A stretch of 64,000 bases of DNA from an uncultured virus (IMG/VR IMGVR_UViG_3300036940_000262) (Duplodnaviria > Heunggongvirae > Uroviricota > Caudoviricetes): IMG/VR virus record IMGVR_UViG_3300036940_000262. The stretch is one strand, 5' to 3'. The translations under genes and the position numbers were made by a program. Within the stretch, counting starts at the first letter, position 1; every line of letters begins with the position of its first letter. This document shows positions 31,341-48,008 of this stretch, piece by piece. The notes beneath the pieces were generated by a model, which saw only the letters and a list, made by a program, of their open reading frames with translations, ran no database searches and had not been told where the DNA came from.

Positions 31341-31359
31341 AAGTTTTAAACAAAAAAGT

Positions 31360-31383
31360 AAGAGGGCGAAAGCCCTCTTTTTG
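31360..31383 (+). terminator. Intrinsic terminator
   Basis: AAGAGGGC-gaaa-GCCCTCTT + T tract. Confidence 0.85.
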
Positions 31384-31542
31384 CTACAATAAACAAAAGA
31401 ACATATAAGCAAAAATAGTTATTTAATACAGGTATAGATTAAGTATAGAAACTTAAACAACTTGAGGGTGAGTTGGTACAGTACCTTTAAAATCAATATT
31501 AATATTTAGAGGGAAATTTTTAATCAAAAGAGGTGTAAGGGT

Positions 31543-32046
31543 ATGTGTATAAAAACGGATGTAGAGAGGTTATTTAGCCATTTTAATGGTAAAATAATGC
31601 AAAACGGTAAAGTGTATGGTGGGAGAAATGATTTAAGCGGAACACTAGCGGGGTACAAGGGTAGTATCTTTCGTCAAGGTGTTTATTTGTTAAGTGACAA
31701 AGTATTAAAAGAGGGTTATAAGTATCGAATGAGATGTTGTTCAGGTACTTTAGTATCAGAGAACGGATATGTAAGCCTCTATCTCAACGGTAATAAACTA
31801 GACAATTTTCAGAATAGCGTGCTTTTAAAGAGCAGGTTAAAATATAACTTAAGTGATAGACCTCAAAACTATAAGATTATGTTTTTATATAAAGAGTATA
31901 AAAATAAAAACAGAGGTAGTATTATACTTGGTTTTAAACTTATGCATTTGACAAAGAGAGAGATTGTAAAAGGTGACTATATGACTATGATAAATACGCC
32001 TGTCGTAGCAGTGAATTTAGGCAAGAAGGTAATGGAAGCTTGTTAA
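31543..32046 (+). CDS. Hypothetical basic protein
   Basis: ORF with GAGGTG RBS. Confidence 0.6.
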   Translation: MCIKTDVERLFSHFNGKIMQNGKVYGGRNDLSGTLAGYKGSIFRQGVYLLSDKVLKEGYKYRMRCCSGTLVSENGYVSLYLNGNKLDNFQNSVLLKSRLKYNLSDRPQNYKIMFLYKEYKNKNRGSIILGFKLMHLTKREIVKGDYMTMINTPVVAVNLGKKVMEAC

Positions 32047-32066
32047 CTAAATGAGAGAAGGTAAAT

Positions 32067-32753
32067 ATGGAATTTAATATTCATACAACAAAAGGTAAAC
32101 GAGAAGAAAATCAGGATACGTACTGGTGTGTAAAGCTAAACGTAGAGGGGTATGAGTTGTGTGTAGTTTGCGTATGTGATGGTATGGGTGGTTTAAACGA
32201 AGGTCGTTTAGCAAGTTCATTAGTTGCTAAAGCAGTCAGAGACTACTATACTGGTGGTAATTATGATTTTGAGGGGTTGCAAAGTGTCTTAGAGGATGTC
32301 AATAGAGAGATTTATATTAAGGGACTTAGTGTAGGTGCTATTGGAACTACTTGTACATTATTATCAACTTACAAAGGTCAGTACAAGATATTCCATACAG
32401 GTGACAGCAGATGTTATAAGGTGTCAAATCAAAATGTTGAGATACTGACTGAAGACCACTCAGCTCTTGCAAAATGTAGGCGAGAAGGCAAAGTATTAAC
32501 TCCTGAGAAAGAGAAGAAGTATAGAAATACTTTAACAAGAGCTTTAGGGGTATCTGGTGAGTTTAAAATAGACTACATTGATGGTGAATACAATCAAGAT
32601 GATCTGTTTTTAGTTTGTTCTGACGGTTTTTGGCATTATTTGCAGGATGATGATTTTAAGAGTGGTGAAATAAATAATCTCAAAAATTTAACTGGCAGAT
32701 TTATCGAATTGGGTGAGACAGATAACATAACAAGTATTGTATTGACAGTATAG
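32067..32753 (+). CDS. PP2C/PPM family Ser/Thr phosphatase
   Basis: GKREENQD; VCDGMGG; GTT; GDSRCY; LTEDHS; LTRALG; CSDG; DNIT. Confidence 0.93.
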   Translation: MEFNIHTTKGKREENQDTYWCVKLNVEGYELCVVCVCDGMGGLNEGRLASSLVAKAVRDYYTGGNYDFEGLQSVLEDVNREIYIKGLSVGAIGTTCTLLSTYKGQYKIFHTGDSRCYKVSNQNVEILTEDHSALAKCRREGKVLTPEKEKKYRNTLTRALGVSGEFKIDYIDGEYNQDDLFLVCSDGFWHYLQDDDFKSGEINNLKNLTGRFIELGETDNITSIVLTV

Positions 32754-32765
32754 AGAGGAAATAAG

Positions 32766-33011
32766 ATGAATACAAGAGGGTTTAAAAACGGTGATTTTGT
32801 AAAAGCGAGTGTTGCGTATGGTGGTAGTAAGAATTCAAGAACAGGGGTAGAGAAAAGTGGTATTGTTGAGAAATGTTTTCCATACTTTGCACTTGTTCAG
32901 TTTAACAAGTTTAAACAATGCTTTTTCTATAATGAATTATCAAGAGTAACACAATCGGAGTATAAAAAAAGTCATAATCAAAAGGTAGATTTTGTCTACT
33001 GTACAGATTGA
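32766..33011 (+). CDS. Small beta-barrel protein, weakly Veg-like
   Basis: EKSGIVEKCFPYFALVQF...FFYNEL pattern; resemblance only. Confidence 0.5.
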   Translation: MNTRGFKNGDFVKASVAYGGSKNSRTGVEKSGIVEKCFPYFALVQFNKFKQCFFYNELSRVTQSEYKKSHNQKVDFVYCTD

Positions 33012-33020
33012 GAGGTAGTT

Positions 33021-34148
33021 GTGCGTAGAGTTTTAGTAAAAGGTACAATTGTTTTAGAGAAGTACAAAATTATAGAAGTAGTAAACTCTGGAGGTATGTC
33101 AAACATCTATAAAGTTATTGACAATAAACTTGGTAAAGAGTGGTGCTTAAAGGAAATTATTAAGTCTAGAACTGCTGAAAGTGAATTAGAGTATCGCAGT
33201 TTAATTCAAGAAGCAAACATTATGAGATACTTAGATCATCCTAGCATACCAAGGATTGTCACAATAGAGGATACAGGTTCTTCTATATTTATTATAATGG
33301 ACTTCGTAAAAGGGTTGGATATAAGGAAAACAGTTGAAAAAGATGGTAAATTTTCTTTTGAAAGAACTGTTGATGTTTCTAAGCAAATATGTGATGTTTT
33401 AATTTATTTACATAGTTTAGAAAATCCTATCTTTTACAGAGATATGAAACCTTCTAATGTGGTATTGCAGGAGGATGGTAAGGTAAGGGTATTGGATTTT
33501 GGAATTAGCTTAGTTCTGAGAGGTGGGGATAAAATTGAAGAACCCCTAGGGACAAGAGGGTATGCTCCACCAGAACAAGCTAAAAAAGGCAGTAATTGCG
33601 ACTTAAGGAGTGATATCTATTCATTTGGTATGACAATGTACTATATGTTGACTGGCATAAATCCAAAAACAACAAAAGAAAAACTAAAACCAATAAGTTT
33701 AGCTTCAAACGAGTTTAATAATGACTTAGACAGTATTGTGTATAAGTGTATAGATGTAGATCCAGATAATCGGTATCAAACTGCACATGAACTTAAAGAG
33801 GCTTTATTAAAGTGCAAAAAAGAAGAACCTGAGGCAAGCAAAAAAAGTACTCCTAAAATAGTAGCAACGGTAGTATGTGCTGTAGCAGGGGTTTTAGGGG
33901 TAATACTTTCTTTAAAAACATTATTTGCTTTAATCTTGGCAGTTGGGGGGTTTGTGGCAATACCTTTAATTTGGTTAAAAGGCAAGAAACAAGTAAAATC
34001 TATAAAGAGAGAGAAGTTTGTAAAAAGCAGACCTACCAAAGAAATAGATTTACTTGACTTAATACCAGACAACGTTGTCAAAGAGGTGGAGGACAAGCCA
34101 TTAAAAAATATCTATATTGTTGAAGAATACACTAATCTATTTGATTAA
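33021..34148 (+). CDS. Membrane-anchored Hanks-type Ser/Thr protein kinase
   Basis: GGMS.IY; CLKE; YRDMKPSN; DFG; GTRGYAPPE; SDIYSFG; two C-terminal TM helices. Confidence 0.93.
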   Translation: MRRVLVKGTIVLEKYKIIEVVNSGGMSNIYKVIDNKLGKEWCLKEIIKSRTAESELEYRSLIQEANIMRYLDHPSIPRIVTIEDTGSSIFIIMDFVKGLDIRKTVEKDGKFSFERTVDVSKQICDVLIYLHSLENPIFYRDMKPSNVVLQEDGKVRVLDFGISLVLRGGDKIEEPLGTRGYAPPEQAKKGSNCDLRSDIYSFGMTMYYMLTGINPKTTKEKLKPISLASNEFNNDLDSIVYKCIDVDPDNRYQTAHELKEALLKCKKEEPEASKKSTPKIVATVVCAVAGVLGVILSLKTLFALILAVGGFVAIPLIWLKGKKQVKSIKREKFVKSRPTKEIDLLDLIPDNVVKEVEDKPLKNIYIVEEYTNLFD

Positions 34149-34170
34149 GATAACAGCATTTCAGTAATTC

Positions 34171-34207
34171 AAACTGGGGTGCTGTTTTTTATTATATGTG
34201 GTATAAT
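34171..34207 (+). promoter_or_regulatory. Element-specific promoter, variant box
   Basis: AAACTGGGGT(34171-34180), 21 nt, TATAAT(34202-34207). Confidence 0.65.
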
Positions 34208-34243
34208 AATCATCAGTCAAAAAAGGGAGGAGTGGGTTAAATT

Positions 34244-35227
34244 ATGAGTGAAAAGAAAACACCTGCAGATATTATTATTGAGAGATTTTTAAAGGATGTA
34301 GAAGCAACAGGAACATTGCCTTGGCAGAACCCAGACAAGATGTTTCAAGCTTTTAACTATTTTACTTTACGTCCTTATAGTGGGTTTAATAAGATAATCC
34401 TACCCTCTGGCGAGTATATGACAAAGAAGCAGATAGATGAGTACAACAAAAAGAACGAAACACACTATCTCTTTCAAAAAGGAATCAAGTGGTATACAAT
34501 CAGTTACAAGTCTGAAAAGAAGTATAAAATTTCTTTAAGCGATGTACAAAAACTCTTTCCTAATGTTTCTCAGACAACTTCTGCAGGACGTATTGGGTAT
34601 GAGTATCCATATTCCTATCATAAGTTGCTAGACGGAACATTTGAAAAGCGTAGAAGTATTTTATTGTATTCACAAGTAGCTGAAAGACAGCACTTTAAAA
34701 ATGAGCATGGTGAGATGTTGCCATCTCGGTATGATACAGGAGATATTAGATTTATAACGAGTGATGCGAATACTTTTATTAAAGACTACACCACTAGGGA
34801 AAAGATAAAAGTAAAGAAAAGTGAAGATGGGATTTATGAGTACGATGTTACAATGGATAAGATTGAGACAGCTACTCTTAATCCTAAAAACATTGACGAA
34901 TTTTGTAATATCTTTAGAGAGTTATCTCGTTCGACAGGTCATAGTAAAAGATTAGATAGAGAAGGGGTAACAAACTTAAATTTAGGTTTTGGTTCAGATG
35001 AGTATGCGATAGAGGAGTGTATTGAGGAGATAGCAACATCATTAATGTGTAATGAGTGTGGTTTAACTTCTTTCTCAGAAAGGTATACAGAGCAGTATAA
35101 GAACAGTGTCGAGTACATTAGAATATGGAAAAGCCGGATGCAGAACTGGGGTTCATCATTTATTTACATCGCTTCAAAAGCAGATGAATCTTTTAACAGA
35201 GTGTTAAGTGGTGGTTCAGATGAGTAA
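34244..35227 (+). CDS. ArdC-like ssDNA-binding antirestriction protein with degenerate zincin domain
   Basis: GTLPWQ.P...N..T.RPYSG.N...YMT.KQ (ArdC N); RELSRSTGHSKRLDR...FGSDEYA.EE...E (MPTase-like, HExxH lost). Confidence 0.8.
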   Translation: MSEKKTPADIIIERFLKDVEATGTLPWQNPDKMFQAFNYFTLRPYSGFNKIILPSGEYMTKKQIDEYNKKNETHYLFQKGIKWYTISYKSEKKYKISLSDVQKLFPNVSQTTSAGRIGYEYPYSYHKLLDGTFEKRRSILLYSQVAERQHFKNEHGEMLPSRYDTGDIRFITSDANTFIKDYTTREKIKVKKSEDGIYEYDVTMDKIETATLNPKNIDEFCNIFRELSRSTGHSKRLDREGVTNLNLGFGSDEYAIEECIEEIATSLMCNECGLTSFSERYTEQYKNSVEYIRIWKSRMQNWGSSFIYIASKADESFNRVLSGGSDE

Positions 35228-36875
35228 TGAATACACAATGATGGATAAAGCAACATTAGAAATCTTTGTAAAAGCAATTAATCCTTTAAGAGAGGCTATA
35301 GGCATATATTATAAAGATAACACAACTCAATTAAATAATGCTGTATTTAATTTTTATGAGAATCAGGGGTATATGGTGCTTGAAAACGCTACATCAGGCA
35401 ATTTTTTATTAAAAGTAAATCATCAGGACGAGTCAATGTTAGATTATCTAGGTTTTCAAGGGAGCTTTAAACCTGAGTATCTAAGGGGTAAAGTATTTAC
35501 AACGTTAAAAAAGCTTGTAGATACTTCACCTGTACCTATCAAACAGATTTCTTTTGAGGTCGGGGAGTTAATTAAGAGTGGGGGTATGAGACCTTCTCTT
35601 ATTGAGGCAGGGAGTTTTGAGATAGGGTTATTCAAAAATCCTCAAAAAAGTCGCAAGAGTAGTCCTAAAATTAAAGAAAAAGAGAAAGCGGTATCTGAGG
35701 GCACTTTAGATAAAAAACCTGTTAAAAAGGCTGTGAGAGCCAAAAAAGCGGAGGTTGAAAAAATTGACCGTTATCTGACAATGGTTGATGCAGGGGAGAA
35801 TAATTACAAGTATTACAGTATTAAAGTAAATGGTGATACGTTTGAAGCCACTTGGGGTAGAATGGGTGTAACTGGTAGAGTTATGGCAGGAAACAAAGTC
35901 TATCCAATAAAAGATTATTCAAAGAAGTATAATGAAAAGATAGCGAAGGGGTATAAAGACAGAACTGAAATTCTAACAAGTAGTGGTTCAGACGAGTCTA
36001 CAAGTGCATCAAAAGAAGCAACAATGCTGTATAATTTTCTTCTTAAATACTCAAAAGAGAGAGTTCACAGTACTTTAGTATCAGATAATCTTACTAAAGG
36101 CATGGTAGAACACTCAAGAAAGTTGTTAAATGATTTGTACAACTCCAACGATATACGGTCTTTCAACAATGTATTGTTAGAGTTGATGGCAATCTGTCCT
36201 CGTAAAGTAGATAAGGTAGAATCCCAACTAGCAAAGAGTAGACGAGATATTCCTTTTATTTTTGACAGAGAAGAAGACCTGCAAAAAGCTATGGAAGGGG
36301 TAGTCGGCAACGGTGGAGGAACATTAGATGCAGATGTATTAATGGCAACTGATGAACAAAGAGAGCAGGTACTTGATAAACTTTCTGATAAATTGAAGCC
36401 TAAAGTTGTAGATGTTTACAGGGTTAAACCAAACAGACAGCAAGTCAAGTTTGATAACTATATTAAACAAAGAAATATTACTAAAATCAAGCAGTTGTGG
36501 CATGGTAGTAGAAATGAGAACTGGATTTCTATAATTAGAAACAGTTTAAGTTTAAGTCCCAATGCTCAAATAACAGGTAAGATGTTTGGTAATGGTATTT
36601 ATTTTGCCCCATCAAGTATGAAATCATGGGGGTACACCTCTGGTGATGGTGCTTATTGGACAGGTGGGGGTAGTAAAGATGCTGTAATGGGTTTATATGC
36701 AACAGCTTATGGTGAACCTCACATCACTGAAAGAGCAGGTAAATTTACAGAGGACACTATTTATGGTAAAGATTGTGTTCATGCAAAAGCAGGTTCACAA
36801 CTCAGAAATGATGAGATAATCTATTATAATGAAGCGGCAATGGTGTTGAATTATATTGTAACGTTTAAGTGTTAG
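35220..36875 (+). CDS. WGR-domain poly(ADP-ribose) polymerase (PARP-like ADP-ribosyltransferase)
   Basis: NNYKYY...ATWGRMG...KYNEKIAKGYKD (WGR); helical region; LWHGS, GKMFGNGIYFA, KSWGY, LRNDEIIYY give the H-Y-E triad. Confidence 0.9.
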   Translation: MSNEYTMMDKATLEIFVKAINPLREAIGIYYKDNTTQLNNAVFNFYENQGYMVLENATSGNFLLKVNHQDESMLDYLGFQGSFKPEYLRGKVFTTLKKLVDTSPVPIKQISFEVGELIKSGGMRPSLIEAGSFEIGLFKNPQKSRKSSPKIKEKEKAVSEGTLDKKPVKKAVRAKKAEVEKIDRYLTMVDAGENNYKYYSIKVNGDTFEATWGRMGVTGRVMAGNKVYPIKDYSKKYNEKIAKGYKDRTEILTSSGSDESTSASKEATMLYNFLLKYSKERVHSTLVSDNLTKGMVEHSRKLLNDLYNSNDIRSFNNVLLELMAICPRKVDKVESQLAKSRRDIPFIFDREEDLQKAMEGVVGNGGGTLDADVLMATDEQREQVLDKLSDKLKPKVVDVYRVKPNRQQVKFDNYIKQRNITKIKQLWHGSRNENWISIIRNSLSLSPNAQITGKMFGNGIYFAPSSMKSWGYTSGDGAYWTGGGSKDAVMGLYATAYGEPHITERAGKFTEDTIYGKDCVHAKAGSQLRNDEIIYYNEAAMVLNYIVTFKC

Positions 36876-36907
36876 GTATACAATAAGGTGTGAAGGAGTA
36901 AACCGTT

Positions 36908-37036
36908 ATGGAAGTTCCGAATGTAGAGTGCGTGGGTTTTGGTTGTGAGTGCGATATTCAAACAGAAATGAAGTATTTCATCGACTGCGAAGAAGAACAG
37001 GAACAAACGGAAAAAGAAACAATCTTAACTACATAG
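36908..37036 (+). CDS. Small Cys-containing acidic peptide (42 aa; not in the ORF track)
   Basis: AAGGAG RBS; MEVPNVECVGFGCECDIQTEMKYFIDCEEEQEQTEKETILTT*; hairpin 37018-37047 follows. Confidence 0.5.
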   Translation: MEVPNVECVGFGCECDIQTEMKYFIDCEEEQEQTEKETILTT

Positions 37037-37065
37037 TTAAGATTGTTTTTATTTTAAAAAGTCTT

Positions 37066-37102
37066 GAACTAGGTAAAAAAGGCAGTCTAATTGTAGTATA
37101 AT
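37066..37102 (+). promoter_or_regulatory. Element-specific promoter (box-N21-TATAAT)
   Basis: GAACTAGGTA(37066-37075), 21 nt, TATAAT(37097-37102). Confidence 0.75.
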
Positions 37103-37133
37103 ATTGATAATAAATAAATTAATGGGGGACAGT

Positions 37134-37556
37134 ATGGAACTGTTATATACGGAAAAGCAAGTCAAAGGGGTAGGCGATGTAGTTATTAATGCGATTGGTG
37201 AAAACATCTCTGGAAAACCTTTATCTAATGAAGTTGAGAGTGCTTTAGATAAAAATTGGGAGTTGTCCAGCAATGGCATTAGTCGTCTACTAACAAATGA
37301 GAACATCGTTATGTTGGTAGAGTATGATGAGGAGATGGCTGACAGATACAACACTTCACTAGATTCATTGTACGATAAAATGTGGAAGGGTTTAAAAGAA
37401 CTTGAAGACCATGAGGAGTTTGACGATTTAAAGGTTGTTATCTGTAAAGATGTGGAATTTATGCATCAACATGAGTTGTATGTATTACTTCCTCTAGACT
37501 CAGACAATCAATTTGTAGGTATAGTTGAGGATATTGTATTTGACGCATTTTGTTAA
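37134..37556 (+). CDS. Hypothetical acidic protein
   Basis: GGGGG RBS before ATG at 37134, downstream of promoter. Confidence 0.65.
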   Translation: MELLYTEKQVKGVGDVVINAIGENISGKPLSNEVESALDKNWELSSNGISRLLTNENIVMLVEYDEEMADRYNTSLDSLYDKMWKGLKELEDHEEFDDLKVVICKDVEFMHQHELYVLLPLDSDNQFVGIVEDIVFDAFC

Positions 37557-37565
37557 AATATTTTT

Positions 37566-37602
37566 AAACTTGGTAGAATAAAAATAGAACTTAATGTATA
37601 AT
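37566..37602 (+). promoter_or_regulatory. Element-specific promoter (box-N21-TATAAT) upstream of candidate ncRNA-1
   Basis: AAACTTGGTA(37566-37575), 21 nt, TATAAT(37597-37602). Confidence 0.72.
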
Positions 37603-37609
37603 AGTATCA

Positions 37610-37795
37610 TAAAGTGGTTGAGGCGGCACAGAAATCTGTTTCCACTTTTATACAGCACATTATTAATGTCTTGTAATTACAGATTGGGATATCAGTTGTT
37701 CCTGTAATCACAACTGATACTTCTTCTTTTCTTATTTCATTTACCACCATCAATATTAAGCTTGTGATTGGGTCATATTGATGGTGGGCTTGCAA
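37610..37795 (+). ncRNA. Candidate structured ncRNA-1 (short paralogue)
   Basis: No RBS or ORF after promoter; stems AAAGTGG/CCACTTT, TATCAGTTG/CAACTGATA, CCACCATCAATAT/ATATTGATGGTGG; motifs shared with ncRNA-2. Confidence 0.55.
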
Positions 37796-37835
37796 TCAAC
37801 GATAATGTTTATATAAAATATTTTTAAAGATATCT

Positions 37836-37872
37836 AAACTAGGTATTACAAAAATAAAACATATCGTATAAT
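37836..37872 (+). promoter_or_regulatory. Element-specific promoter (box-N21-TATAAT) upstream of candidate ncRNA-2
   Basis: AAACTAGGTA(37836-37845), 21 nt, TATAAT(37867-37872). Confidence 0.75.
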
Positions 37873-37879
37873 ATTAAAT

Positions 37880-38314
37880 ATAGGGTGGTTGAGCCAATGT
37901 AGATTAGTTTCTGTTCCCACTCTTTAGTAAATAGCGTAATCTTTATTGGGTTATAAAGATTACGCTGAACAAATCCCTACAGAAATATGTAGTGGCTATC
38001 AATTCTAGACAAGGTAGTCAACTGTTTTTGAAAAAAAGGGTTCTCGTAATTACAGAAACATTTTTTGTAAAGGGATGGTTGCGCGAAGGCAATAAACCCT
38101 AGACAGGTTACCGTTAGTATCTGCGGTTGAACTCTGCTGAAGCATTAGAAGTTAGAGATGTAAGAAGATGTTCCGGTACATCAGTAGTGAACTGAGTACT
38201 CCATCGTTAAAGAGAGACACTTGCGAGGTACTGGATTGGTAGCTATCTCTGTAATCATCAACTACCAACTTTATAAGAGACCGCACAGTTAGTATATCCT
38301 GTGCGGTCATTTTT
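37880..38314 (+). ncRNA. Candidate large structured ncRNA-2 (~430 nt)
   Basis: Promoter-to-terminator unit without a credible ORF; many stems, including 14-bp AGCGTAATCTTTAT/ATAAAGATTACGCT, AGGGTT/AACCCT and TTGGTAG/CTACCAA. Confidence 0.65.
38279..38314 (+). terminator. Intrinsic terminator closing ncRNA-2
   Basis: GACCGCACAG-10 nt-CTGTGCGGTC + ATTTTT. Confidence 0.75.
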
Positions 38315-38333
38315 CATCAATAAGAGGTAATAT

Positions 38334-38618
38334 ATGGTAGAGTTAAAAGGAACAACTAAACAAATAGCTTGGGCGGAAACTGTTAGAGAAGAAATTATAG
38401 ACAGGGTTGAAAGACATTTAGAGGTGATGGTAACAGGTGAAAATTTGCTTGAAAGAAATAAACAAGTTTCTTATTTAAGGGATAAAGAACTTCAATCAAT
38501 GAAAATACCTGTAAAGTACTATAAAGAGCTTTTAGATTTTTGCGATGACTTTAACTTCGCTATTAAAGAATCTGTAACTATATTACTTGAAAATAAACTG
38601 GGTTTAATACCTGAATAA
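38334..38618 (+). CDS. Hypothetical protein (phage/plasmid-type N-terminal motif)
   Basis: ELKGTTKQIAWAE.VR motif; GAGGT RBS. Confidence 0.65.
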   Translation: MVELKGTTKQIAWAETVREEIIDRVERHLEVMVTGENLLERNKQVSYLRDKELQSMKIPVKYYKELLDFCDDFNFAIKESVTILLENKLGLIPE

Positions 38619-38631
38619 ATTTTGCTATAAT
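38595..38631 (+). promoter_or_regulatory. Element-specific promoter (box-N21-TATAAT)
   Basis: AAACTGGGTT(38595-38604), 21 nt, TATAAT(38626-38631). Confidence 0.7.
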
Positions 38632-38661
38632 AAAGTAAATAGATGGGGAGGTTGATAGAGT

Positions 38662-38928
38662 ATGGCAACTAAAATTTATGTATTGTTGGAGTGCGATAAG
38701 TTTGAGACAGGTGATAGCATTAGATATATTGATGCATCATTAAATCCAGACAAAATTGCAGATAGAGTGATAAGTTTATTAAGACAAGGGATTATGGAGT
38801 ATAAAAACTCAGGAGGTAAAAAAGCTGTAGAAAAGTTTGAAACTGATAAAAATAGTGGGACATCTATTGAAGACTTGTTTAACGATATTAAGTACGGTTG
38901 CTTAGATGTTATTGAGGAACAACAGTAG
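38662..38928 (+). CDS. Hypothetical protein
   Basis: GGGGAGG RBS. Confidence 0.65.
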   Translation: MATKIYVLLECDKFETGDSIRYIDASLNPDKIADRVISLLRQGIMEYKNSGGKKAVEKFETDKNSGTSIEDLFNDIKYGCLDVIEEQQ

Positions 38929-38994
38929 TGAATGTAGTGAATGAGGTTATTTTAGAATTGTAAAACAAGCTAAAAGAAAGGCGTAGTAGATTAT

Positions 38995-39348
38995 ATGCTA
39001 ACTAAAGATAAAATATATTATTTTGCCCATCCCTGCACAACAGGAAATTTAACTATTGTTGAGAATCGGGTTATTGAGGAAAGTTTGTATAATCAGGTAT
39101 TAGCTGTTCATGGAATCAAGGTTCTCAGACCTCTGCAATTAATACCAGAAACAATGGGGCATCGAGAAGCAATGGAAAAGTGCTTTAAACTATTAGATGT
39201 GGCTGATTGTGCTATCTTCCCACAAAACTGGGAAACAAGTAAAGGTTGTAGAATGGAGTATGATTGGTGTTTAGCAAATGGTAAAACAATACTATTTATA
39301 AACAGGTACTACGAAGTAGTGAGAGAGTTGGAGGGAAAGATATGGTAA
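38995..39348 (+). CDS. DUF4406 / nucleoside 2-deoxyribosyltransferase-like protein
   Basis: YYFAHP.T; CFKLLDVAD; NWETSKGCRMEY..C...GK. Confidence 0.75.
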   Translation: MLTKDKIYYFAHPCTTGNLTIVENRVIEESLYNQVLAVHGIKVLRPLQLIPETMGHREAMEKCFKLLDVADCAIFPQNWETSKGCRMEYDWCLANGKTILFINRYYEVVRELEGKIW

Positions 39349-39704
39349 ACATGAGTACTTTAAATTTAATCTCAATGTTAAATATGTTTGCAAGAAAACA
39401 AGGACTTGGTGGTGTACCTTTCTCAGACTGTCAAGAAGGGGTAGATTACTCTAAGTTTATTGTATATGACGATAGAGATGGTGTTGCTTATGATGGGGAA
39501 CAAGTGAAGTCACATCCAATAGTGGATAGTTATATTGTAGATAGTGGTAGAAAAGAAGTTCTGTCTAATTATTCAGACAACAATCCAGGGTACATCTTTA
39601 ATTACGATATAGACAAAGTGACTGGCAAACATAGAATAGTTATAGAGTTAATCGAGGAGTGCGGAATCATAATGATTGAAGATGGACAATGGTATGTAGC
39701 ATAA
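39342..39704 (+). CDS. Hypothetical protein
   Basis: ORF overlapping the previous gene. Confidence 0.6.
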   Translation: MVNMSTLNLISMLNMFARKQGLGGVPFSDCQEGVDYSKFIVYDDRDGVAYDGEQVKSHPIVDSYIVDSGRKEVLSNYSDNNPGYIFNYDIDKVTGKHRIVIELIEECGIIMIEDGQWYVA

Positions 39705-39750
39705 TGTAGTAATCAAATGCACTTAGTAAAATCTAGGTGCTTTTTTAGTA

Positions 39751-39787
39751 CAACAAGGTTATATTAAAATGCGACTATTGGTATAAT
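39751..39787 (+). promoter_or_regulatory. Element-specific promoter (box-N21-TATAAT)
   Basis: CAACAAGGTT(39751-39760), 21 nt, TATAAT(39782-39787). Confidence 0.7.
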
Positions 39788-39821
39788 ATATGTATTATCA
39801 GTAAAAAGAGAGGTGGTTTTT

Positions 39822-41144
39822 ATGTACCCTGTAATTAATGTTTGGGTGGATGAAAATAATAAACAAGTTGGTGCAAGATTATTTGTAGATGGCGAACCCA
39901 AGGATTTTACACTAAAGGAGTTACATAAAAACTTTAAAGGAAGTCTGTCTAATGCACTTATTACAGATAAAGGATTAAGGGGTAAGAAAGGTGTTCATTT
40001 AAAAAGACGATTATCTGAGCGAAATACGGATAAAGGTAAACCTTTACTTTACACATTAATGCACAAAGATACGGTTGTATTTGAAGTATATCAAGAGTGC
40101 GTAACTATTAAAGATAGTAGTAAAATACCTTTTGAATTGAGAAATATCTTATTAAAGAAAACAGATACAATGGGTGAAATATACAAGGTAGTCTCATTTT
40201 ATAGGTGGTTAGAAGATAGAGTAAACCACCTATCAAGAGAGTATATGAATAAAGTTTATATTAAAAGAAAAGTCGGTAGAGACAGGGAGAGAATATTAAA
40301 AGATAGTTGTGCAGTATCGGTAACAGACAATTTTTGGGTACTTCGGTCAGATTTAAAAACTTCTTGGAGTGAGTTGAGAGAGGTTTTAGATACAAGTTTA
40401 TCTTTAGTAAACACAGCATTAACAGGAGACATAGAGTATAAAGGTTTTGATAAAACTGAAAAGGATACAACTTCAATTTTCTCTATAAAAGGATTTTTTC
40501 CAAAGGCTATCCATAAAGGGGTATTACTAAAACAAGGATATACCGCTGAGTACGAGGTTTTAGGTATGGAGGTGGCCAGCTACCTAAACATACCGGTTGC
40601 GCAGTCATATTACAAAGAGAACGGTGTTGTGGCTAGTAAATTGTTCACATCATCTGAAAAGTCATTAGTCCATGCAAAAGAATTATTAACATACTTGGGG
40701 TACACAAGACCTGATGAAAGTATTTCTAACGATGATGAGGTACATGAAATAGTTTATAATTATTTCAAATCTATTAGAAGGACAGATATAACTAGAGATT
40801 TAGAAAGACTGTATTTACTGACCTATATAATTGGAAATGAGGATTTGCACGAGGAAAATTTTGGGTTTTTATACAGTAACACGAGATTTGAAAATGGTAC
40901 TTTTAAGATATTAGAGGTATCCCCAGCCTATGATTTTAATAATGCTTTTTCTATTTCAACAACTTATAGCCCTTATAAGTGGATAGCAGAAAATGCAAAT
41001 TATTTTTTGTCAAATAACAAAGATATAGAGGAGAGATTAAGTTCAAGTAAATTTAAAAAACTTGTAGAGAACTTAAAACATCTTAATGACAAAGAAAAGA
41101 AAGCGATTTTAATTAGAGTAAGTAAACTCTTGAAGGAGGTTTAA
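39822..41144 (+). CDS. HipA-like kinase
   Basis: SVTDNFW; KG.FPK; EYEV; IIGNEDLHEENFG (catalytic loop); SPAYDFN. Confidence 0.82.
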   Translation: MYPVINVWVDENNKQVGARLFVDGEPKDFTLKELHKNFKGSLSNALITDKGLRGKKGVHLKRRLSERNTDKGKPLLYTLMHKDTVVFEVYQECVTIKDSSKIPFELRNILLKKTDTMGEIYKVVSFYRWLEDRVNHLSREYMNKVYIKRKVGRDRERILKDSCAVSVTDNFWVLRSDLKTSWSELREVLDTSLSLVNTALTGDIEYKGFDKTEKDTTSIFSIKGFFPKAIHKGVLLKQGYTAEYEVLGMEVASYLNIPVAQSYYKENGVVASKLFTSSEKSLVHAKELLTYLGYTRPDESISNDDEVHEIVYNYFKSIRRTDITRDLERLYLLTYIIGNEDLHEENFGFLYSNTRFENGTFKILEVSPAYDFNNAFSISTTYSPYKWIAENANYFLSNNKDIEERLSSSKFKKLVENLKHLNDKEKKAILIRVSKLLKEV

Positions 41145-41146
41145 AA

Positions 41147-41746
41147 ATGAGATATTTTATAAGTGATTTGCACTTCAATCATGAAGTGGCCTTAATAAAC
41201 TATAAAAGACCATTCAGCTCAGTAGAGGAGATGAATGAGTCAATAATAGATAACTGGAATAATGCAGTAGGAAACAAAGATACAGTATATCTTTTGGGTG
41301 ATGTAGCCTTTGGTAGTGGAAAAACTATTTCTGATTTAGTGTCAAGACTAAACGGCAGAAAACACCTAATAGCAGGTAATTGGGACAGTAAATTTTTATT
41401 TAGCAGAGGGTTTGACAATCGAGTATTCAAATCAATAACCTCTTACAACACGAGAAGTCATACAATAGAGGGGTACGAAGGAAGATTGATTTTAAGTCAC
41501 TACCCTTTTGCCGATTGGGATTCTTCACATAAAGGTACAATCCATCTTCATGGACATATTCATAACAGAGTCCCTAGTTTTCAGTTATTGGGAGATGCTT
41601 CTAAACGATTTATGTTCAATGTATCTTTAGAGGTAATGGATTATAGACCACAAACCTTAGAAGAGATTATGAATGGACGACTTGAGGAGTGGGTAGACTT
41701 TATAAAGTCTGGTAAGAGATTAAACGGTTTAGAGGGTTTAATATAA
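41147..41746 (+). CDS. Calcineurin-like metallophosphoesterase
   Basis: SDLHFNH; LLGD; AGNWD; LSHYP; HLHGHIH; FNVS. Confidence 0.9.
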   Translation: MRYFISDLHFNHEVALINYKRPFSSVEEMNESIIDNWNNAVGNKDTVYLLGDVAFGSGKTISDLVSRLNGRKHLIAGNWDSKFLFSRGFDNRVFKSITSYNTRSHTIEGYEGRLILSHYPFADWDSSHKGTIHLHGHIHNRVPSFQLLGDASKRFMFNVSLEVMDYRPQTLEEIMNGRLEEWVDFIKSGKRLNGLEGLI

Positions 41747-41756
41747 GGAGGTTAAA

Positions 41757-42557
41757 ATTAAAGTAGAAAGAGAACTTGTACGTGGAGATGTGATTGTCTG
41801 TAAAGGAACTCGTGCTGTCATTGCAGAAGTATTGGCTCAAGATGCATATGAGGGGTACGAGGGACGAGAGGGATATTATGATATTGAGATTAAAGACACA
41901 AGGGGCAAATATCGTCATTGGAAGTCCGACTCAGATGGCGGTCATGTAGAATTGCTTGGTGGGATGAAAGAGTTTGGCATTTTAGTAGATTGTTTTAGCG
42001 GTAAAACAATGAACTACATGAGAGAGTGTGTAAAGGTACTTAAAAGTCATAACTACAATCCTGATAAAGTTTTAACTTCTCTACACATGAAAGTGATTGA
42101 CTATAAACCTGGGTGGCATTTAGAGTACTCATTTAAGGATTTGGGTGTCATGTCAAACAAAAATGATGGAACAGATACTTCTTATAAAAATCTAGTATCT
42201 TCTATTAGAGAGGACTTCGGTGAGTTCGAGCGGTTGGTATTCCCTTGCAGTATAGGAGAGGGGTATGTGTTTGATAACAAGTTGGTAGCATATAAGCACA
42301 ACTCTTATTTACAAGATTATTATGAATTATTAGAGAGTACAGTAGAGATGTACTATAACGGTTCACCTTTGGACGAATCTCAATTATCAAACATGATGTT
42401 AAGGGATGAGGTGTATTTGAGTAAAGGTAGTCATGAAAAGATTATTGCTTCACTCAATAAGTTTAAAGGCGGAACTTGGAAATATGATGGTGATGGAACA
42501 CCTGACGATATTGTATACACAGACGGAACTAACTTCTTTGTAGTATACATAAGATAA
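41757..42557 (+). CDS. Hypothetical protein (possible ATT start; ORF track uses GTG at 41790)
   Basis: AAGGAGG RBS at 41745-41751 precedes in-frame ATT at 41757. Confidence 0.6.
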   Translation: MKVERELVRGDVIVCKGTRAVIAEVLAQDAYEGYEGREGYYDIEIKDTRGKYRHWKSDSDGGHVELLGGMKEFGILVDCFSGKTMNYMRECVKVLKSHNYNPDKVLTSLHMKVIDYKPGWHLEYSFKDLGVMSNKNDGTDTSYKNLVSSIREDFGEFERLVFPCSIGEGYVFDNKLVAYKHNSYLQDYYELLESTVEMYYNGSPLDESQLSNMMLRDEVYLSKGSHEKIIASLNKFKGGTWKYDGDGTPDDIVYTDGTNFFVVYIR

Positions 42558-42575
42558 GTTTAGAGGGGTAGTTTT

Positions 42576-43088
42576 ATGACATTAGCTGACAGAATCCAAT
42601 TAGCAATGAAAAAAAGAAAGCTTAAACAGGTAGATTTAGTAAACTTGACAGGTATACCACAGAGTACATTAAGTCTCTACATAAGAGAAGGTCACATACC
42701 TAAGAAAGAGGTACTTCAAACGATTGCGGATGCACTAGACGTATCAGTATTCTGGCTAAAGGGGTATGATGAGTATGAGAAAATTCCAGAGACAACTGAA
42801 AAAATAAGTGCTGTATTGATAGGTAAATTAATAGAATCTCATTATGAGAAAAATGAACAGAAGTTTAAAGACTATGCGGAGTTCATTCATAGCAAGTATA
42901 CTGAAACTAGAGACGATAGGTCAGCTAAGATAATCAGAAACAAGATAGACGGGGTAATTGGGACGCAAGTTGTTCTTGATGAGGTTTCTGAGTTGGAGGA
43001 GTTGGTCGTAATAGATAAACGAGGGCAGTCAGACTTAGTTGAGATTAAAAACATTCTCAGGGAAATCGCAAAGAAACTGGAAGTTTAA
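42576..43088 (+). CDS. XRE-family HTH transcriptional regulator
   Basis: RI...MKKRKLKQVDL..LTGIPQSTLSLY..G..PK...IADALDVS..WL.G. Confidence 0.85.
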   Translation: MTLADRIQLAMKKRKLKQVDLVNLTGIPQSTLSLYIREGHIPKKEVLQTIADALDVSVFWLKGYDEYEKIPETTEKISAVLIGKLIESHYEKNEQKFKDYAEFIHSKYTETRDDRSAKIIRNKIDGVIGTQVVLDEVSELEELVVIDKRGQSDLVEIKNILREIAKKLEV

Positions 43089-43191
43089 AAGTGCTATTGT
43101 GAAATAAAAATATTTTTATTTCAGGGGAGGGGTTAACTACAAAAAGAAAGTTATACCGCAAGAAAACGCATCCTAGCATTGGTGAATGGGA

Positions 43192-43219
43192 ACTATACTA
43201 TATTTACTATACTATATTT
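43192..43219. repeat. Tandem 14-bp direct repeat
   Basis: ACTATACTATATTT x2 in a 427-bp intergenic region. Confidence 0.8.
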
Positions 43220-43432
43220 AAGGAAGAGGGGCAGGTCTTATCTTTAAAATAAGACCGCCTTTTCCTGTTTTTGGTTTTCAGAGTCTTTTTAAAAGCCTTA
43301 AAAAGATTTACGCTTGGAAAGTTACTGCAGTTTGGTTTTGTCGGCTTATTTTGGCGATATTAAGCAAATAAAGGGTTAGGTGGCTTTCAAAAAGGGATAA
43401 AAAGTTTTTAAAAAATATTTTAAAAGCATAGT

Positions 43433-43469
43433 GAACAAGGTAAAAGTGCAAGACAATTTATGTTATACT
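43433..43469 (+). promoter_or_regulatory. Element-specific promoter (box-N21-TATACT)
   Basis: GAACAAGGTA(43433-43442), 21 nt, TATACT(43464-43469). Confidence 0.72.
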
Positions 43470-43515
43470 ATACAGGTAAGTTAAGATAGGGTTTTAACGT
43501 TTATAGAAAGGTAGT

Positions 43516-44157
43516 GTGTATGTTATGTTATTAGAGAAGGAAATACCTGAATTTAAGAAGTTTCTTGAAAAACATGGTTATGTTACGCTAGAGAACTCAA
43601 AAAATGAGTATGAAATCTTAAGATGCGAAAGACGACCAAACAAGCCAATGGGTATTACGAAAGACTTGATTGTTCTGTACCGTAAAAAGTCTGGTATGAT
43701 AACAGTTGTAAGCAAAAGTAATGTTATGCTGGATGAGTTTGAAAAAATAAAAACAAAAGACTACACTGTTAAGTATGTAGAATCTGGGGGAGATTACGGG
43801 TACTCACTTCTAGATCCACAAGCCAGAAATGGCAACTTTAGTAAGTTGGCTCAATTCTTAACAAAGTTGGGGTACAAACCTTCTTTTGTTAAATATCCTG
43901 TACTGTTTAAATTTAGCAAAGGAAACGATTCTTTTGAAGTAAAAACAGGTTATAAAGTTTCCGATAATGACCTTAAGATGGTAGAGGTTTGTGATAGAGT
44001 ATCAGGAACAAACTTAAAAAGATTATTTCTACTTGGCGAAAACTATGTTATGAGTGAAGTAGATACTACTATTGTCAGTGAGTACTCAAATCAAGAGGAT
44101 TATCCTAATTACGGTAGTGTACCTTTTCCAGACGACTATTTTGAAGGGCAGTTATGA
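43516..44157 (+). CDS. Hypothetical protein
   Basis: First ORF of a long operon. Confidence 0.65.
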   Translation: MYVMLLEKEIPEFKKFLEKHGYVTLENSKNEYEILRCERRPNKPMGITKDLIVLYRKKSGMITVVSKSNVMLDEFEKIKTKDYTVKYVESGGDYGYSLLDPQARNGNFSKLAQFLTKLGYKPSFVKYPVLFKFSKGNDSFEVKTGYKVSDNDLKMVEVCDRVSGTNLKRLFLLGENYVMSEVDTTIVSEYSNQEDYPNYGSVPFPDDYFEGQL

Positions 44158-44378
44158 CTACTGAGTTAGAGAGGAATTTAGTCGAGGAGTTTTGTGACTT
44201 CTTAGCAAGTCAAGGTTTTGAGTGCAGGGTAGACGGCATTTATGAAAACACTCAAACAGATGTAAGTATCCAAATTTCAGATTTAGGTGAGCTTTGCACA
44301 GTAAAGTGCAACCATAACGAAACAAGTTACTTATCTGAATATTATGTAGATAAGTTTAAAAGAGAAAGGGCTAGTTAA
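44154..44378 (+). CDS. Hypothetical protein
   Basis: ATGA overlap. Confidence 0.6.
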   Translation: MTTELERNLVEEFCDFLASQGFECRVDGIYENTQTDVSIQISDLGELCTVKCNHNETSYLSEYYVDKFKRERAS

Positions 44379-44406
44379 GAAAACTAGCAGAGGAGGTAGT
44401 TTAGTA

Positions 44407-45564
44407 GTGGGACAAAGAGTAGTAATTGTAGATTTTAATCACATGGTGCATACCTATGCAAACAGTAGTCATCGTTTATCAGAGGTAATTGACGGTGAAA
44501 GAGTTGACACAACAATTCAGAGTGGGACAATTAAAGCAATTCATAAATGGTCAAGAGGTGGGTGTAATCCAACGGCTGTGTGTTTTGACAGCCCTGTAGC
44601 TATTAAGAAATCATATTTTGCAGAAGCATTGGGGATGGATACACAAACAGAAAAAGAGTACAAAGGTGGCAGAAAAGGCCTTGGAGGAGACATTTACGAA
44701 ACGATGGACGCTATTAAGAAGATGTTGATGCGTTCAGGGGTATCATGCTATAAAGCAGAAAACTACGAGGCTGACGACTTAATTTCAGCTTGTGTAGACA
44801 GAGCAAAAGAGCAGTACCCAGGTATGCCAATCGACATCATTACTAATGATGCGGATATTCTTCCTTTAGTGGATGAACAAGTATCAGTTTTTCTGAGAAG
44901 TAAAAAGATGACTTGGGCAGAAAGCAAGGAATTAATAAAACCTAAGTATGTCCAGGTAAAACCTGAGAACTTACAAGAGGTTGTTGAGGGTATGTCGGCA
45001 TTTAAGGGGTTTAAGATTCCTTACAACACAGTTTTACTTCATAAACTACTAAGAGGAGACAGTTCTGATAACATTAATACTGATAGTGTTAAAGAAGTCA
45101 GTAAACTTTTTCCACCTAAGAAGTTTAATGAAATGATTGACAGAATGGAAGAGGCTAACGTAGACTTTTCTAAACTTTTTAGATACGGTAAAAACGAGCA
45201 GATTTTCATTGACAAAGATAACAAGCCAATTGCACCTCATAAGTTAGGTAGATATGAACAAGGTGAGTTGCAGAAAATCTACTTAGATCCAAAAGAGTTA
45301 ACAAATATGGCAGGTATCTTATCTTGGTACTACGACTTTGGAAATAAAGTAACTGATGAAGAAAAAGAGGAGCTTATTCAAAAGGTAACTAAACACATCG
45401 AGGTTATGTACAGGGGCATGAACTTAAATGGTCGTCTGGTTGTAAACGGTGGTGAGTTCATCAGAAATCCTGCACAGGTAAAACAAATTAATACCTTTGA
45501 GGAGTACGATTTACAAAAGAGCATCAAGAAATGGGGTATAACTCTATCATTAGGAAGGTTCTAA
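44407..45564 (+). CDS. Stand-alone 5'-3' exonuclease / flap endonuclease (PolA N-domain, T4 RNase H/T5 exo-like)
   Basis: VIVDFN; AVCFDS; YKGGR; YEADDLI; ITND.D; LRGDSSDNI. Confidence 0.88.
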   Translation: MGQRVVIVDFNHMVHTYANSSHRLSEVIDGERVDTTIQSGTIKAIHKWSRGGCNPTAVCFDSPVAIKKSYFAEALGMDTQTEKEYKGGRKGLGGDIYETMDAIKKMLMRSGVSCYKAENYEADDLISACVDRAKEQYPGMPIDIITNDADILPLVDEQVSVFLRSKKMTWAESKELIKPKYVQVKPENLQEVVEGMSAFKGFKIPYNTVLLHKLLRGDSSDNINTDSVKEVSKLFPPKKFNEMIDRMEEANVDFSKLFRYGKNEQIFIDKDNKPIAPHKLGRYEQGELQKIYLDPKELTNMAGILSWYYDFGNKVTDEEKEELIQKVTKHIEVMYRGMNLNGRLVVNGGEFIRNPAQVKQINTFEEYDLQKSIKKWGITLSLGRF

Positions 45565-45565
45565 T

Positions 45566-46696: not shown

Positions 46697-46760
46697 TGGT
46701 GTATATTGGGGTATGTTGGTGACAATATACCCTTTTATAATAATTTTGTTTTGAAAGGGT

Positions 46761-47582
46761 GTGGTTTCTTTGGCAGTTAGTGTTGAACAGAATTTTATAA
46801 GGGAGTTTAAAAAATCTTGTAATAAAACAAATTATCGGTTTTCCACAAACTTCGTAAAGTCCATATCTCCACCAGAATCCGCAGGTTGGGAAGTGTCTGG
46901 ACTTCATAAAGGGTTTGTTGTAATTCCTAAAGAAGCGTCTGTAGGCTTATTTAAGCAATTAAACAATACGGTAGTAGACTTGTATCCACCTTCAAAAAGG
47001 TTGGCTAAGAGGAGGGTCAATTTAGTAACAAGAGATTTTGAGAGAGATTCAAAAGGTAAACCTGTATTGCAGGATGTTACAAGACACTCTGGTTCTATCG
47101 CCGTAATCTCTGAAATAGATTTAAAACTACCTTTCAAGAGAGTGCCTATAGAAGGCTTCGACTATGTGGATTTTTTCATCAACAAGCAAGGGGTGAAGAA
47201 GTTTATCTACATCATACCTAAAAAGATGATTCACCTGGTAAATCAAGTAGCATTGGTAATCTCGACAAAGAATATGAGGAACTACCATGGAAAGGCTTAT
47301 CAAACATGGAGACATGGGACTTTCTATCTTCACCTAGTACCTTATAAACCAAAAGCAAACTATGTTGGTAGTAAAGTGATCTGCACGAAAACATCTTTAG
47401 ATTTTAGTAAAGAGATTTCTACTATTGTAAACTACTGGATGCAGATAGGGTTTATTCCTGAAATAAGATTATGTAACACTTCTTTAGGTAACATGGTTGT
47501 AAGAGATGTAGAACAGGCATTTGAGTCATTTACAAAGATTGAAAGGTTATCTTTAGCAGACAAGGAGATTTATGGAGAGTAA
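46761..47582 (+). CDS. Hypothetical basic protein
   Basis: Long ORF in operon. Confidence 0.65.
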   Translation: MVSLAVSVEQNFIREFKKSCNKTNYRFSTNFVKSISPPESAGWEVSGLHKGFVVIPKEASVGLFKQLNNTVVDLYPPSKRLAKRRVNLVTRDFERDSKGKPVLQDVTRHSGSIAVISEIDLKLPFKRVPIEGFDYVDFFINKQGVKKFIYIIPKKMIHLVNQVALVISTKNMRNYHGKAYQTWRHGTFYLHLVPYKPKANYVGSKVICTKTSLDFSKEISTIVNYWMQIGFIPEIRLCNTSLGNMVVRDVEQAFESFTKIERLSLADKEIYGE

Positions 47583-47943: not shown

Positions 47944-47977
47944 CAAGGTAACATTGGTAGATTTTTTATAGTATAAT
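47941..47977 (+). promoter_or_regulatory. Element-specific promoter (box-N21-TATAAT)
   Basis: TAACAAGGTA(47941-47950), 21 nt, TATAAT(47972-47977). Confidence 0.75.
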
Positions 47978-48008
47978 AGTGTTATAAAATTAAGGAGAGT
48001 GGGGTAGT

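Follow-up and report, generated by a model that had tools for sequence, protein, structure and literature searches.

A candidate orphan noncoding RNA gene with its own promoter motif and terminator on a pXO16-like element

The 64,000-nucleotide (nt) stretch of DNA analysed here, from an uncultured virus (IMG/VR record IMGVR_UViG_3300036940_000262; the whole stretch is hereafter referred to as the window), carries all its long open reading frames (ORFs) on the plus strand, on which the parts of the RNA locus described below also lie. Two of these ORFs, one ending at position 37556 and the other starting at 38334, are separated by 777 nt, the longest gap in the window without plus-strand ORFs, apart from a region with minus-strand ORFs. 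What, if anything, does this gap encode? A preliminary description had placed in it a candidate highly structured noncoding RNA of about 430 nt, with its own promoter and terminator, belonging to a class of large ornate RNAs, such as ROOL or GOLLD, or to a new class. We found that positions 37837-38314 form a sharply delimited noncoding unit, which is probably a real orphan noncoding RNA gene (hereafter referred to as RNA2); a functional ornate structure and the status of a new class are both unproven. The window itself appears to be a distant, low-G+C (35%), Clostridia-like relative of pXO16, either a giant plasmid or a phage-like element of a Firmicute. To our knowledge, nearly all the genes of the giant pXO16-type plasmids are of unknown function and nothing is known of their regulation. 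If real, RNA2 would be the first noncoding RNA described for this lineage and its promoter the first recurrent promoter motif, providing a handle on the transcription programme.

Promoter motif, terminator and coding potential

The window was scanned with the pattern AACTNGGTAN{18,24}TATAAT, on both strands and with 100 shuffled sequences as a control. The motif AACTnGGTA-N21-TATAAT was found in six copies, all on the plus strand, against a shuffled mean of 0.01, and none of the 100 shuffles reached six. It consists of an upstream box at a fixed spacing from a -10 hexamer, 5' of coding-strand genes, and we treat it as a promoter, probably specific to the element, because four of the six copies precede ORFs with a ribosome-binding site (RBS), located 30-60 nt further 3'. 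Three such copies are dispersed (7590-7625, 8191-8226 and 21474-21509), and the other three are clustered around the gap. The first of the clustered copies (37067-37102; AACTAGGTA-N21-TATAAT) is predicted to drive an orphan ORF of 140-150 amino acids (aa; 37104/37134-37556), the second (37567-37602; AACTTGGTA-N21-TATAAT) a shorter noncoding unit (hereafter referred to as RNA1), and the third (37837-37872; AACTAGGTA-N21-TATAAT) is the predicted promoter of RNA2. The DNA 3' of the last two copies, which are 76% identical over 54 nt, is ORF-free. The 21-nt spacing exceeds the standard -35 distance. At 7590 and 8191 the box forms the left arm of a dyad, reading AACTAGGTA...(T)ACCTAGTT at 8191; at both sites the dyad resembles an operator overlapping the -35 region. 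For two gaps of NZ_CP045024.1, a plasmid of the pXO16 type, the best local match was a similar TAGGTA...TATAAT arrangement, and the succession of TAGGTA, then -35 and TGnTATAAT stretches, in this Bacillus plasmid suggests a shared promoter architecture.

RNA2 probably starts about 7-8 nt 3' of the -10 box, near 37880. At its other end lies an intrinsic terminator (38279-38314), in which a G+C-rich hairpin directly precedes a U tract: the GACCGCACAG/CTGTGCGGTC stem (38279-38308; 10 bp, including 7 G-C pairs, with a 10-nt loop) has a folding energy of -16.7 kcal/mol and a pairing probability of 1.00, and is followed by ATTTTT (AUUUUU in the RNA). A consensus terminator scan missed this hairpin because it permits loops of 3-8 nt only. 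From start to terminator, the RNA would be about 435 nt long. Its body (37880-38278) contains no credible ORF, the longest on the plus strand being about 36-37 aa and none having a Shine-Dalgarno sequence. Five ORF fragments of the region gave no Pfam match above noise (best E value 0.049, below the curated cut-off), and an origin as a pseudogene remnant was rejected on this basis. The G+C content (0.389 for 37880-38316, versus 0.356 for the whole window and 0.351 and 0.302 for the upstream and downstream ORFs, respectively) is the highest among 17 intergenic gaps. The promoter, the terminator, the lack of ORFs and the locally higher G+C content previously ascribed to this locus were, therefore, all borne out.

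Predicted fold of RNA2 and its relationship to an upstream unit

The 442-nt stretch containing RNA2 has a minimum free energy (MFE) of -129.1 kcal/mol (z -4.57), and none of 100 shuffled sequences folded as well. A second shuffle run gave a z-score of -4.10, placing the fold of the RNA2 body at z -4.1 to -4.6, and the energy per nt (-0.295 kcal/mol/nt) was the lowest of the 17 gaps. After regression on base composition, the locus ranked third of 578 overlapping 440-nt windows, the two ranking above it containing gene-end terminators. The predicted fold has one large closing junction, a few internal junctions and one candidate pseudoknot. Its signal comes mostly from three elements, with pairing probabilities of 0.97-1.00: the terminator, a 15-bp hairpin (37932-37967; a perfect 14-bp stem extended by a U-G pair, the loop being UGGGUU and the probability 0.97) and a 9-bp closing helix. 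In this helix, 37884-37892 (GGUGGUUGA, overlapping the motif GTGGTTGAG shared with RNA1) pairs with 38258-38266 (UCAACUACC), with a mean probability of 0.99. The stems listed in the preliminary description, including the 14-bp hairpin, the 5' stem (P1; 37882-37923, AGGGUGG/CCACUCU) and the 3' hairpin (38236-38268, UUGGUAG/CUACCAA), are all in the sequence as written. The closing helix and the 3' hairpin are mutually exclusive, because the 3' arm of the hairpin overlaps the UCAACUACC strand. The loop of the 3' hairpin contains UCUGUAAUCA, which is complementary to 38049-38056, within the shared motif GTAATTACAGA (38046-38056; RNA1 counterpart 37673-37683), itself containing the palindrome GTAATTAC.

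Two features of the locus go beyond the preliminary description: a gene starting at 38334, behind the terminator and without a promoter of its own, and a related shorter unit upstream (37567-37800). The RNA1 of this unit (about 37609-37800; approximately 190 nt) is noncoding, has the same type of promoter and appears to be a partial paralogue of RNA2. Its predicted fold (MFE -53.9 kcal/mol, z -4.44) comprises a 5' hairpin homologous to P1 (37611-37617/37642-37648), a 10-bp hairpin (37690-37719; loop UCCUGUAAUC, -9.5 kcal/mol) followed by a pyrimidine-rich tract, a 13-bp hairpin (37744-37787) and, as in RNA2, a closing helix (37615-37624 with 37788-37798). RNA1 transcripts probably continue into RNA2, since RNA1 has no strong terminator.

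From the promoter through the first hairpin, RNA1 and RNA2 are identical at 71 of 108 alignment columns. The 5' hairpin starts 9-10 nt past the -10 box in both units, and its 14 cells are all paired (14/14), with one two-sided change (AU to GC) and one one-sided change (AU to GU). We consider the homology of the promoter plus 5' hairpin to be solid, and a relationship between the two RNA bodies to be probable but not proven. Three motifs of 9-11 nt are common to RNA1 and RNA2: GTGGTTGAG, TCT(T/C)GTAATTACAGA and CTGTAATCA(T)CAACT. The sequences GTAATTACAG and CTGTAATCA each occur three times in the 64 kb, with two of the three occurrences inside RNA1 and RNA2. The bodies have three separate 9-mer blocks in common; when 980 control segments from the window were compared in this way, only 7 matched that number.

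The shared motifs are mutually complementary: ATTACAG lies in a strand and CTGTAAT in the loop of a hairpin, immediately followed by TCAAC, which can be matched with a GGTTGA close to the 5' end. In both predicted folds, the 5' shared motif is used in the helix closing the whole molecule. One strand is contested in both units, between a local 3' hairpin and this helix or, for RNA1, a different partner. A long-range pseudoknot had been proposed between the loop at 38248-38255 and positions 38049-38056. The complementary sequences are indeed present (ATTACAGA at 38049 and TCTGTAAT at 38248), and the recurrence of the ATTACAG/CTGTAAT pairing in RNA1 is the best internal argument for such a structure, but this recurrence constitutes conservation rather than covariation, because the two copies have the same letters. 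The RNA1 motif TTGTAATTACAGAT also has a perfect inverted 14-nt copy at 47727-47740/47741, inside the ORF at 47572-47943. This is the only other good copy in the window of the TGTAATTACA palindrome, and it may be due to chance or be a target site or a protein-binding site.

The explanation that we prefer, and to which we give an even chance, is a stand-alone noncoding RNA gene (37837-38314) with a leaky terminator, rather than a regulated attenuator. The AACTnGGTA-N21-TATAAT promoter would start an ORF-free transcript near 37880, ending at the strong terminator at 38314, and the product would be a stable folded RNA of about 435 nt, in which 5' GGUGGUUGA and 3' UCAACUACC would close the molecule around several hairpins. 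The partial paralogue of about 190 nt, RNA1, would be made from the neighbouring promoter copy, with the same 5' hairpin and motifs. The AUUACAG strand, the CUGUAAU loop and the palindrome GUAAUUAC would most likely mediate RNA-RNA contacts, be they intramolecular or between RNA1 and RNA2. RNA2 may serve the element as a regulatory or scaffold RNA, and polymerases passing the five-U terminator would supply the promoter-less ORF at 38334. Large bacterial RNAs have recently yielded unexpected RNA-only assemblies; if the fold were functional, RNA2, an orphan of more than 400 nt, would join the short list of such RNAs. At present, its value is that of a well-delimited, testable candidate, with a defined promoter, start, end and motifs, and not that of a demonstrated new class.

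Homologues, natural variation and competing explanations

Searches for homologues yielded only near-identical copies. In phage and plasmid collections, blastn in a distant mode with 37560-38340 and megablast with 30000-50000 returned nothing, and blastn with 37880-38278 (E≤5) gave one 26-nt chance match per collection. In viral contigs, one shared-motif pattern had more than 117 chance matches without further motifs, a second had none and a third had eight, again by chance; the neighbouring proteins retrieved two weak, irrelevant loci and nothing else, and a query based on the two-sequence alignment also found nothing. Metagenome and genome contig sets were queried by exact pattern. A three-motif pattern detected two loci in metagenome contigs, 99.96% identical to each other, without blastn similarity to the window and with surroundings unlike those of RNA2. 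In genome contigs, the hairpin pattern had 13 chance matches, mostly in Proteobacteria and none in Firmicutes, none of them with more than one other shared motif, and a query with the clamp-loader protein of the window found nothing. In the plasmid NZ_CP045024.1, the shared motifs are nowhere clustered; RNA2 surpasses all 28 long gaps of this plasmid in G+C content and fold energy, and its best local matches to the query are promoter-like stretches only. Its 1.7-kb gap at 219298-220986 was considered as an RNA2 counterpart and rejected, as it contains 21-22-bp tandem repeats and has no Rfam match or flanking-protein similarity. The repeats of this largest unannotated gap (about 17, TCTGAAAGTTA-like, at approximately 219880-220240) resemble iterons or a centromere, and are followed by a TAGGTA-type promoter and 520 nt of noncoding DNA.

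Part of the stretch is present in 13 public runs from 10 studies, and two of these runs may be the source of the window. Contigs were aligned for 4 of the 13 runs, three labelled 'DNA?' and one metatranscriptomic. The three 'DNA?' runs, from subsurface, wastewater and bioreactor studies, gave short contigs with at least 99% identity, and the metatranscriptomic run gave two contigs (37903-38057 and 38048-38274) with about 98% identity. For runs X7, X8 and X9, no contigs were found on 37000-37560 or 38340-38700 (nor, for X9, on RNA1); this absence was not used as evidence. A 262-nt contig from run X4 follows the window for 89 nt (38393-38481, inside the downstream ORF) and then continues with 173 nt of unrelated sequence, pointing to either a different arrangement downstream of the RNA or a chimeric contig.

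The natural variant represented by the RNA-library copy differs from the window by six substitutions and two 1-nt deletions in homopolymer runs, both located in hairpin loops. Four of the five substitutions at predicted paired positions retain a standard pair: three C-to-U changes convert G-C into G-U pairs, and one G-to-A change converts a U-G into a U-A pair. The only substitution outside the predicted pairs is in a loop, and no change is compensated. The three G-U outcomes would be tolerated only in plus-strand RNA and may, therefore, provide a weak hint as to the strand.

Several observations weigh against a structured RNA gene. The minus strand of RNA2 has a z-score of -4.62, equal to that of the plus strand, short gaps containing only a terminator likewise reach z-scores below -4, and the pairing probabilities are just 0.4-0.6 for most of the other internal helices. 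In the comparison with RNA1, the lone two-sided change in the 5' hairpin comes from two sequences and carries no statistical weight, 261 of 500 shuffles performing equally well. Support for paralogy of the RNA bodies is moderate: with words of k=8 and k=10, the number shared is unremarkable (reached by 111 and 125 of the 980 controls, respectively), and 4 of 300 shuffles attained the chained alignment score. No covariation could be observed, because no homologue other than near-identical copies was found. The Logan contigs reveal neither the ends of the RNA nor its strand, and their presence alone does not demonstrate transcription. In the natural variant, a G-to-U change at 37958 breaks a pair of the 15-bp hairpin, the most confident helix, and the variant folds at -116.2 kcal/mol, whereas the reference folds at -129.1 kcal/mol. 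Among 250 random variants bearing changes of the same types (mean -124.1 ± 3.9 kcal/mol), 98% fold at least as well as the natural one. This result speaks against strong selection to keep the predicted fold stable. Finally, a gene directly behind the terminator needs read-through, an arrangement that fits a leader too.

This last point concerns the orphan 94-aa ORF at 38334-38618, which has a good RBS (AAGAGG) and starts 20 nt past the terminator. Between the two there is no promoter-like site, so the ORF would be transcribed only through read-through and RNA2 is physically its leader. RNA2 may, therefore, be a cis-regulatory leader or attenuator for an operon starting at 38334, sensing a protein, a small molecule or RNA1 and setting the passage of polymerases through the terminator, a possibility that we consider unlikely. 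The competition between the 3' hairpin and the closing helix for 38258-38268 would suit such a switch, and the homologous RNA1 hairpin at 37690-37719 (-9.5 kcal/mol), with its pyrimidine-rich tract, could be a weak terminator. However, the competing pairings lie at least 11 nt upstream of the terminator and do not touch it. When RNA2 was folded up to 38298, the 5' arm of the terminator was essentially unpaired (pairing probability 0.06-0.11 at 38282-38287), and no antiterminator is predicted, since this arm has no upstream partner. The 5' AGGGUGG of RNA2 resembles the start of a T-box motif, but the T-box model was unmatched, as were all riboswitch aptamer and leader models, and a riboswitch or T-box attenuator was rejected. 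The five-U tract would fit partial read-through, as expected for the stand-alone gene with a leaky terminator.

Terminated leader RNAs are known from Gram-positive conjugative plasmids, as exemplified by the prgQ Qs RNA and Anti-Q of Enterococcus pCF10. RNA2 resembles this system as a promoter-proximal RNA of a few hundred nt with an intrinsic terminator just before genes, accompanied by a second RNA with complementary loops. By contrast, RNA1 lies on the same strand and is complementary via short palindromic or loop motifs only, with no alternative fold touching the terminator. The put RNAs of phage HK022 are also two related RNAs 3' of two related promoters, each with an initial stem-loop and with terminators downstream; unlike RNA1 and RNA2, they are about 70 nt long, have two stem-loops and come from a coliphage, and no sequence or model match to them was found here.

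We assign a low, but appreciable, probability to a functionless spacer, generated by local duplication of the promoter and the first 50 nt, with stems due partly to chance and partly to a 5' stabiliser hairpin and the terminator. A natural variant less stable than almost all random variants and with its best helix broken, a minus strand folding equally well relative to shuffles, similar z-scores in several other gaps and the lack of homologues in any collection searched would all be consistent with a spacer. The flanking ORFs are orphans too, so the neighbourhood may be young and fast-evolving. Conversely, the G+C content and per-nt fold energy are the most extreme of the 17 gaps, the three promoter copies and the strong terminator are intact, copies with at least 99% identity occur in runs from three further studies (and one with about 98% identity in a fourth), and the motifs shared with RNA1 include a complementary pair.

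A more ambitious version of the RNA-gene reading is distinctly improbable. It would make RNA1 and RNA2 the founders of a class of large structured RNAs, new and restricted to giant conjugative elements of the pXO16-like kind, transcribed from tandem copies of the element-specific promoter and associating via GUAAUUAC and AUUACAG/CUGUAAU, either as homo- or hetero-oligomers like ROOL and GOLLD, or with RNA1 as a same-strand countertranscript refolding nascent RNA2. Oligomeric association is now known for ROOL and GOLLD RNAs, and the self-complementary and loop-complementary motifs of RNA2 could, in principle, support RNA-RNA assembly. In phage phi29, the function of the packaging RNA, pRNA, requires intermolecular pairing of complementary loops. 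RNA2 would likewise be a mobile-element RNA with complementary loops, but it has no Rfam match, its genome is of a different type and there are no recognisable packaging genes nearby. The new class suggested in the preliminary description cannot be claimed from near-identical copies without covariation. RNA2 does not yet qualify as a class of structured RNA, since it lacks comparative support and its single variant speaks against tight constraints on the fold.

A DNA-level element, such as a single-strand origin or promoter acting after conjugative transfer, or protein-binding sites on the palindrome TGTAATTACA, is very unlikely. The relative of the window is a conjugative giant plasmid, both strands fold equally well, the 14-mer around the RNA1 palindrome recurs inverted at 47727-47740, and TAGCGT, the CS-6 motif of ssoA-type origins, is present at 37932-37937. 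However, the enrichment in sequences nearly matching the 14-bp palindrome is weak (15, versus 7.0 ± 2.9 in shuffles, 2 of 100 of which reach 15), and there are no iterons or tandem repeats. Origins of the ssoA type expose the hexamer TAGCGT/A in the terminal loop of a long hairpin and have an RSB site; here, TAGCGT forms the base of the 15-bp stem, and an ssoA-type origin was rejected accordingly. The promoter copies pointing into the region are of the ordinary double-strand kind and RNA-library contigs map there, and three of the variant changes give G-U pairs, tolerated in plus-strand RNA but mismatches in DNA or in the minus strand.

Two other kinds of RNA were tried and rejected on genetic context. 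In type III toxin-antitoxin RNAs (ToxI-like), a promoter and a terminator flank tandem direct repeats, each about 34-36 nt long, and a gene for an endoribonuclease toxin comes next; the 37000-39000 region contains no tandem array, the promoters being its only repeat family with more than two copies, and searches of Pfam, PHROG and PADLOC gave no match for the 94-aa ORF 3' of RNA2. Retron msr-msd RNAs have an adjacent reverse transcriptase gene, and no reverse-transcriptase domain was detected in the Pfam scan of the 72 ORFs of the window.

That RNA2 is a diverged member of a known large RNA family (ROOL, GOLLD, OLE, raiA or HEARO) is so improbable as to be almost negligible: Rfam 15 gave no match at the gathering score in the whole 64-kb window, and a permissive search of 37400-38450 (1051 bases) gave four noise matches (trpB motif, DUF3800-I, a snoRNA and a miRNA; E values 1.7-6.3, about 17-21 bits and at most 20.5, versus cut-offs of 44-70). 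ROOL was absent from these four weak matches at E≤10, and neither the ROOL nor the GOLLD covariance model was matched. In the absence of any Rfam match, RNA2 does not belong to ROOL, GOLLD or another described family, and this part of the preliminary description has to be abandoned. The passages on ROOL and GOLLD drawn on here (Weinberg et al. 2017, PMC5737381; see also the cryo-EM preprint 10.1101/2024.12.08.627333) do describe RNAs resembling RNA2 in size class and location: several hundred nt long, noncoding, with many stems and possible long-range pairings, on Firmicutes mobile DNA. The same passages place them often next to tRNA genes and in prophages (PMC5737381), whereas ARAGORN found no tRNA gene in the 64 kb and the setting is that of a pXO16-like giant plasmid, so these families were rejected on context as well. 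RNA2 also differs from them in that no homologues, and hence no conserved consensus, were found. Its length of about 435 nt and its predicted fold, with a single large closing junction and just one candidate pseudoknot, likewise do not fit ROOL.

The surrounding element

The window is part of a contig with a reported length of about 181 kb. Its clamp loader has as its best public relative an AAA ATPase of 350-kb B. thuringiensis plasmids (42.6% identity), which we take, from their size and host, to be of the pXO16 type. By tblastn, 12 of the 72 ORFs of the window match NZ_CP045024.1 with 24-43% identity and without any change of order, and the genes surrounding the clamp loader (57145-63999) are arranged alike in the window and this pXO16-type plasmid; the collinearity concerns the window in general and 32000-64000 in particular. 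One family-specific protein matches only the ten Bacillus records of these plasmids in PLSDB. Pfam and PHROG searches also identified toxin-antitoxin pairs, ChW-repeat surface proteins, which are typical of Clostridia, an IS607-type TnpA/TnpB pair, two Dam-type methyltransferases, a Ser/Thr kinase, a PP2C phosphatase, an ArdC-like anti-restriction protein, a WGR-PARP protein and a HipA-like kinase. On this evidence, the element looks like the first Clostridia-type relative of pXO16.

The ORFs flanking the RNA locus are less informative. No family was found for the 150-aa upstream ORF, and the 94-aa ORF has no relative except itself among 5.8 billion protein clusters, nothing in the protein atlas and an unusable structure model (pLDDT 47). 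Residues 4-33 of the 94-aa ORF (38343-38432, with the motif TKQIAWAE) are 57% identical to a stretch (3001-3090) of a viral contig with a G+C content of 73%; this match is the sole sign that the ORF may be a real gene with distant relatives. Possible targets of the RNA were sought by a duplex scan of 72 translation-initiation regions, which yielded no useful information.

Directly upstream of the RNA locus (32067-36875) lies a cluster encoding the PP2C phosphatase, the Ser/Thr kinase, the ArdC-like zincin (PHROG 'anti-restriction protein') and the WGR-PARP protein, which ends with a bidirectional terminator-like hairpin (37011-37054). Elsewhere in the window, an ORF-free gap of 427 nt (43089-43515; fold z -3.8), 3' of a gene for a helix-turn-helix (HTH) regulator, has no Rfam match. 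The IS607-type pair (5233-7658) comprises a serine recombinase with a MerR-type HTH (5427-6110) and TnpB (6088-7290); it is preceded by a structured 194-nt gap (z -4.6, G+C 0.22) and followed by a 368-nt gap, the place at which a guide RNA would be expected. Finally, the regions at 722-1621 and 4368-4700 encode a Phd/YefM antitoxin with a YoeB/ParE toxin, a HicB-like antitoxin and a MazF/PemK toxin.

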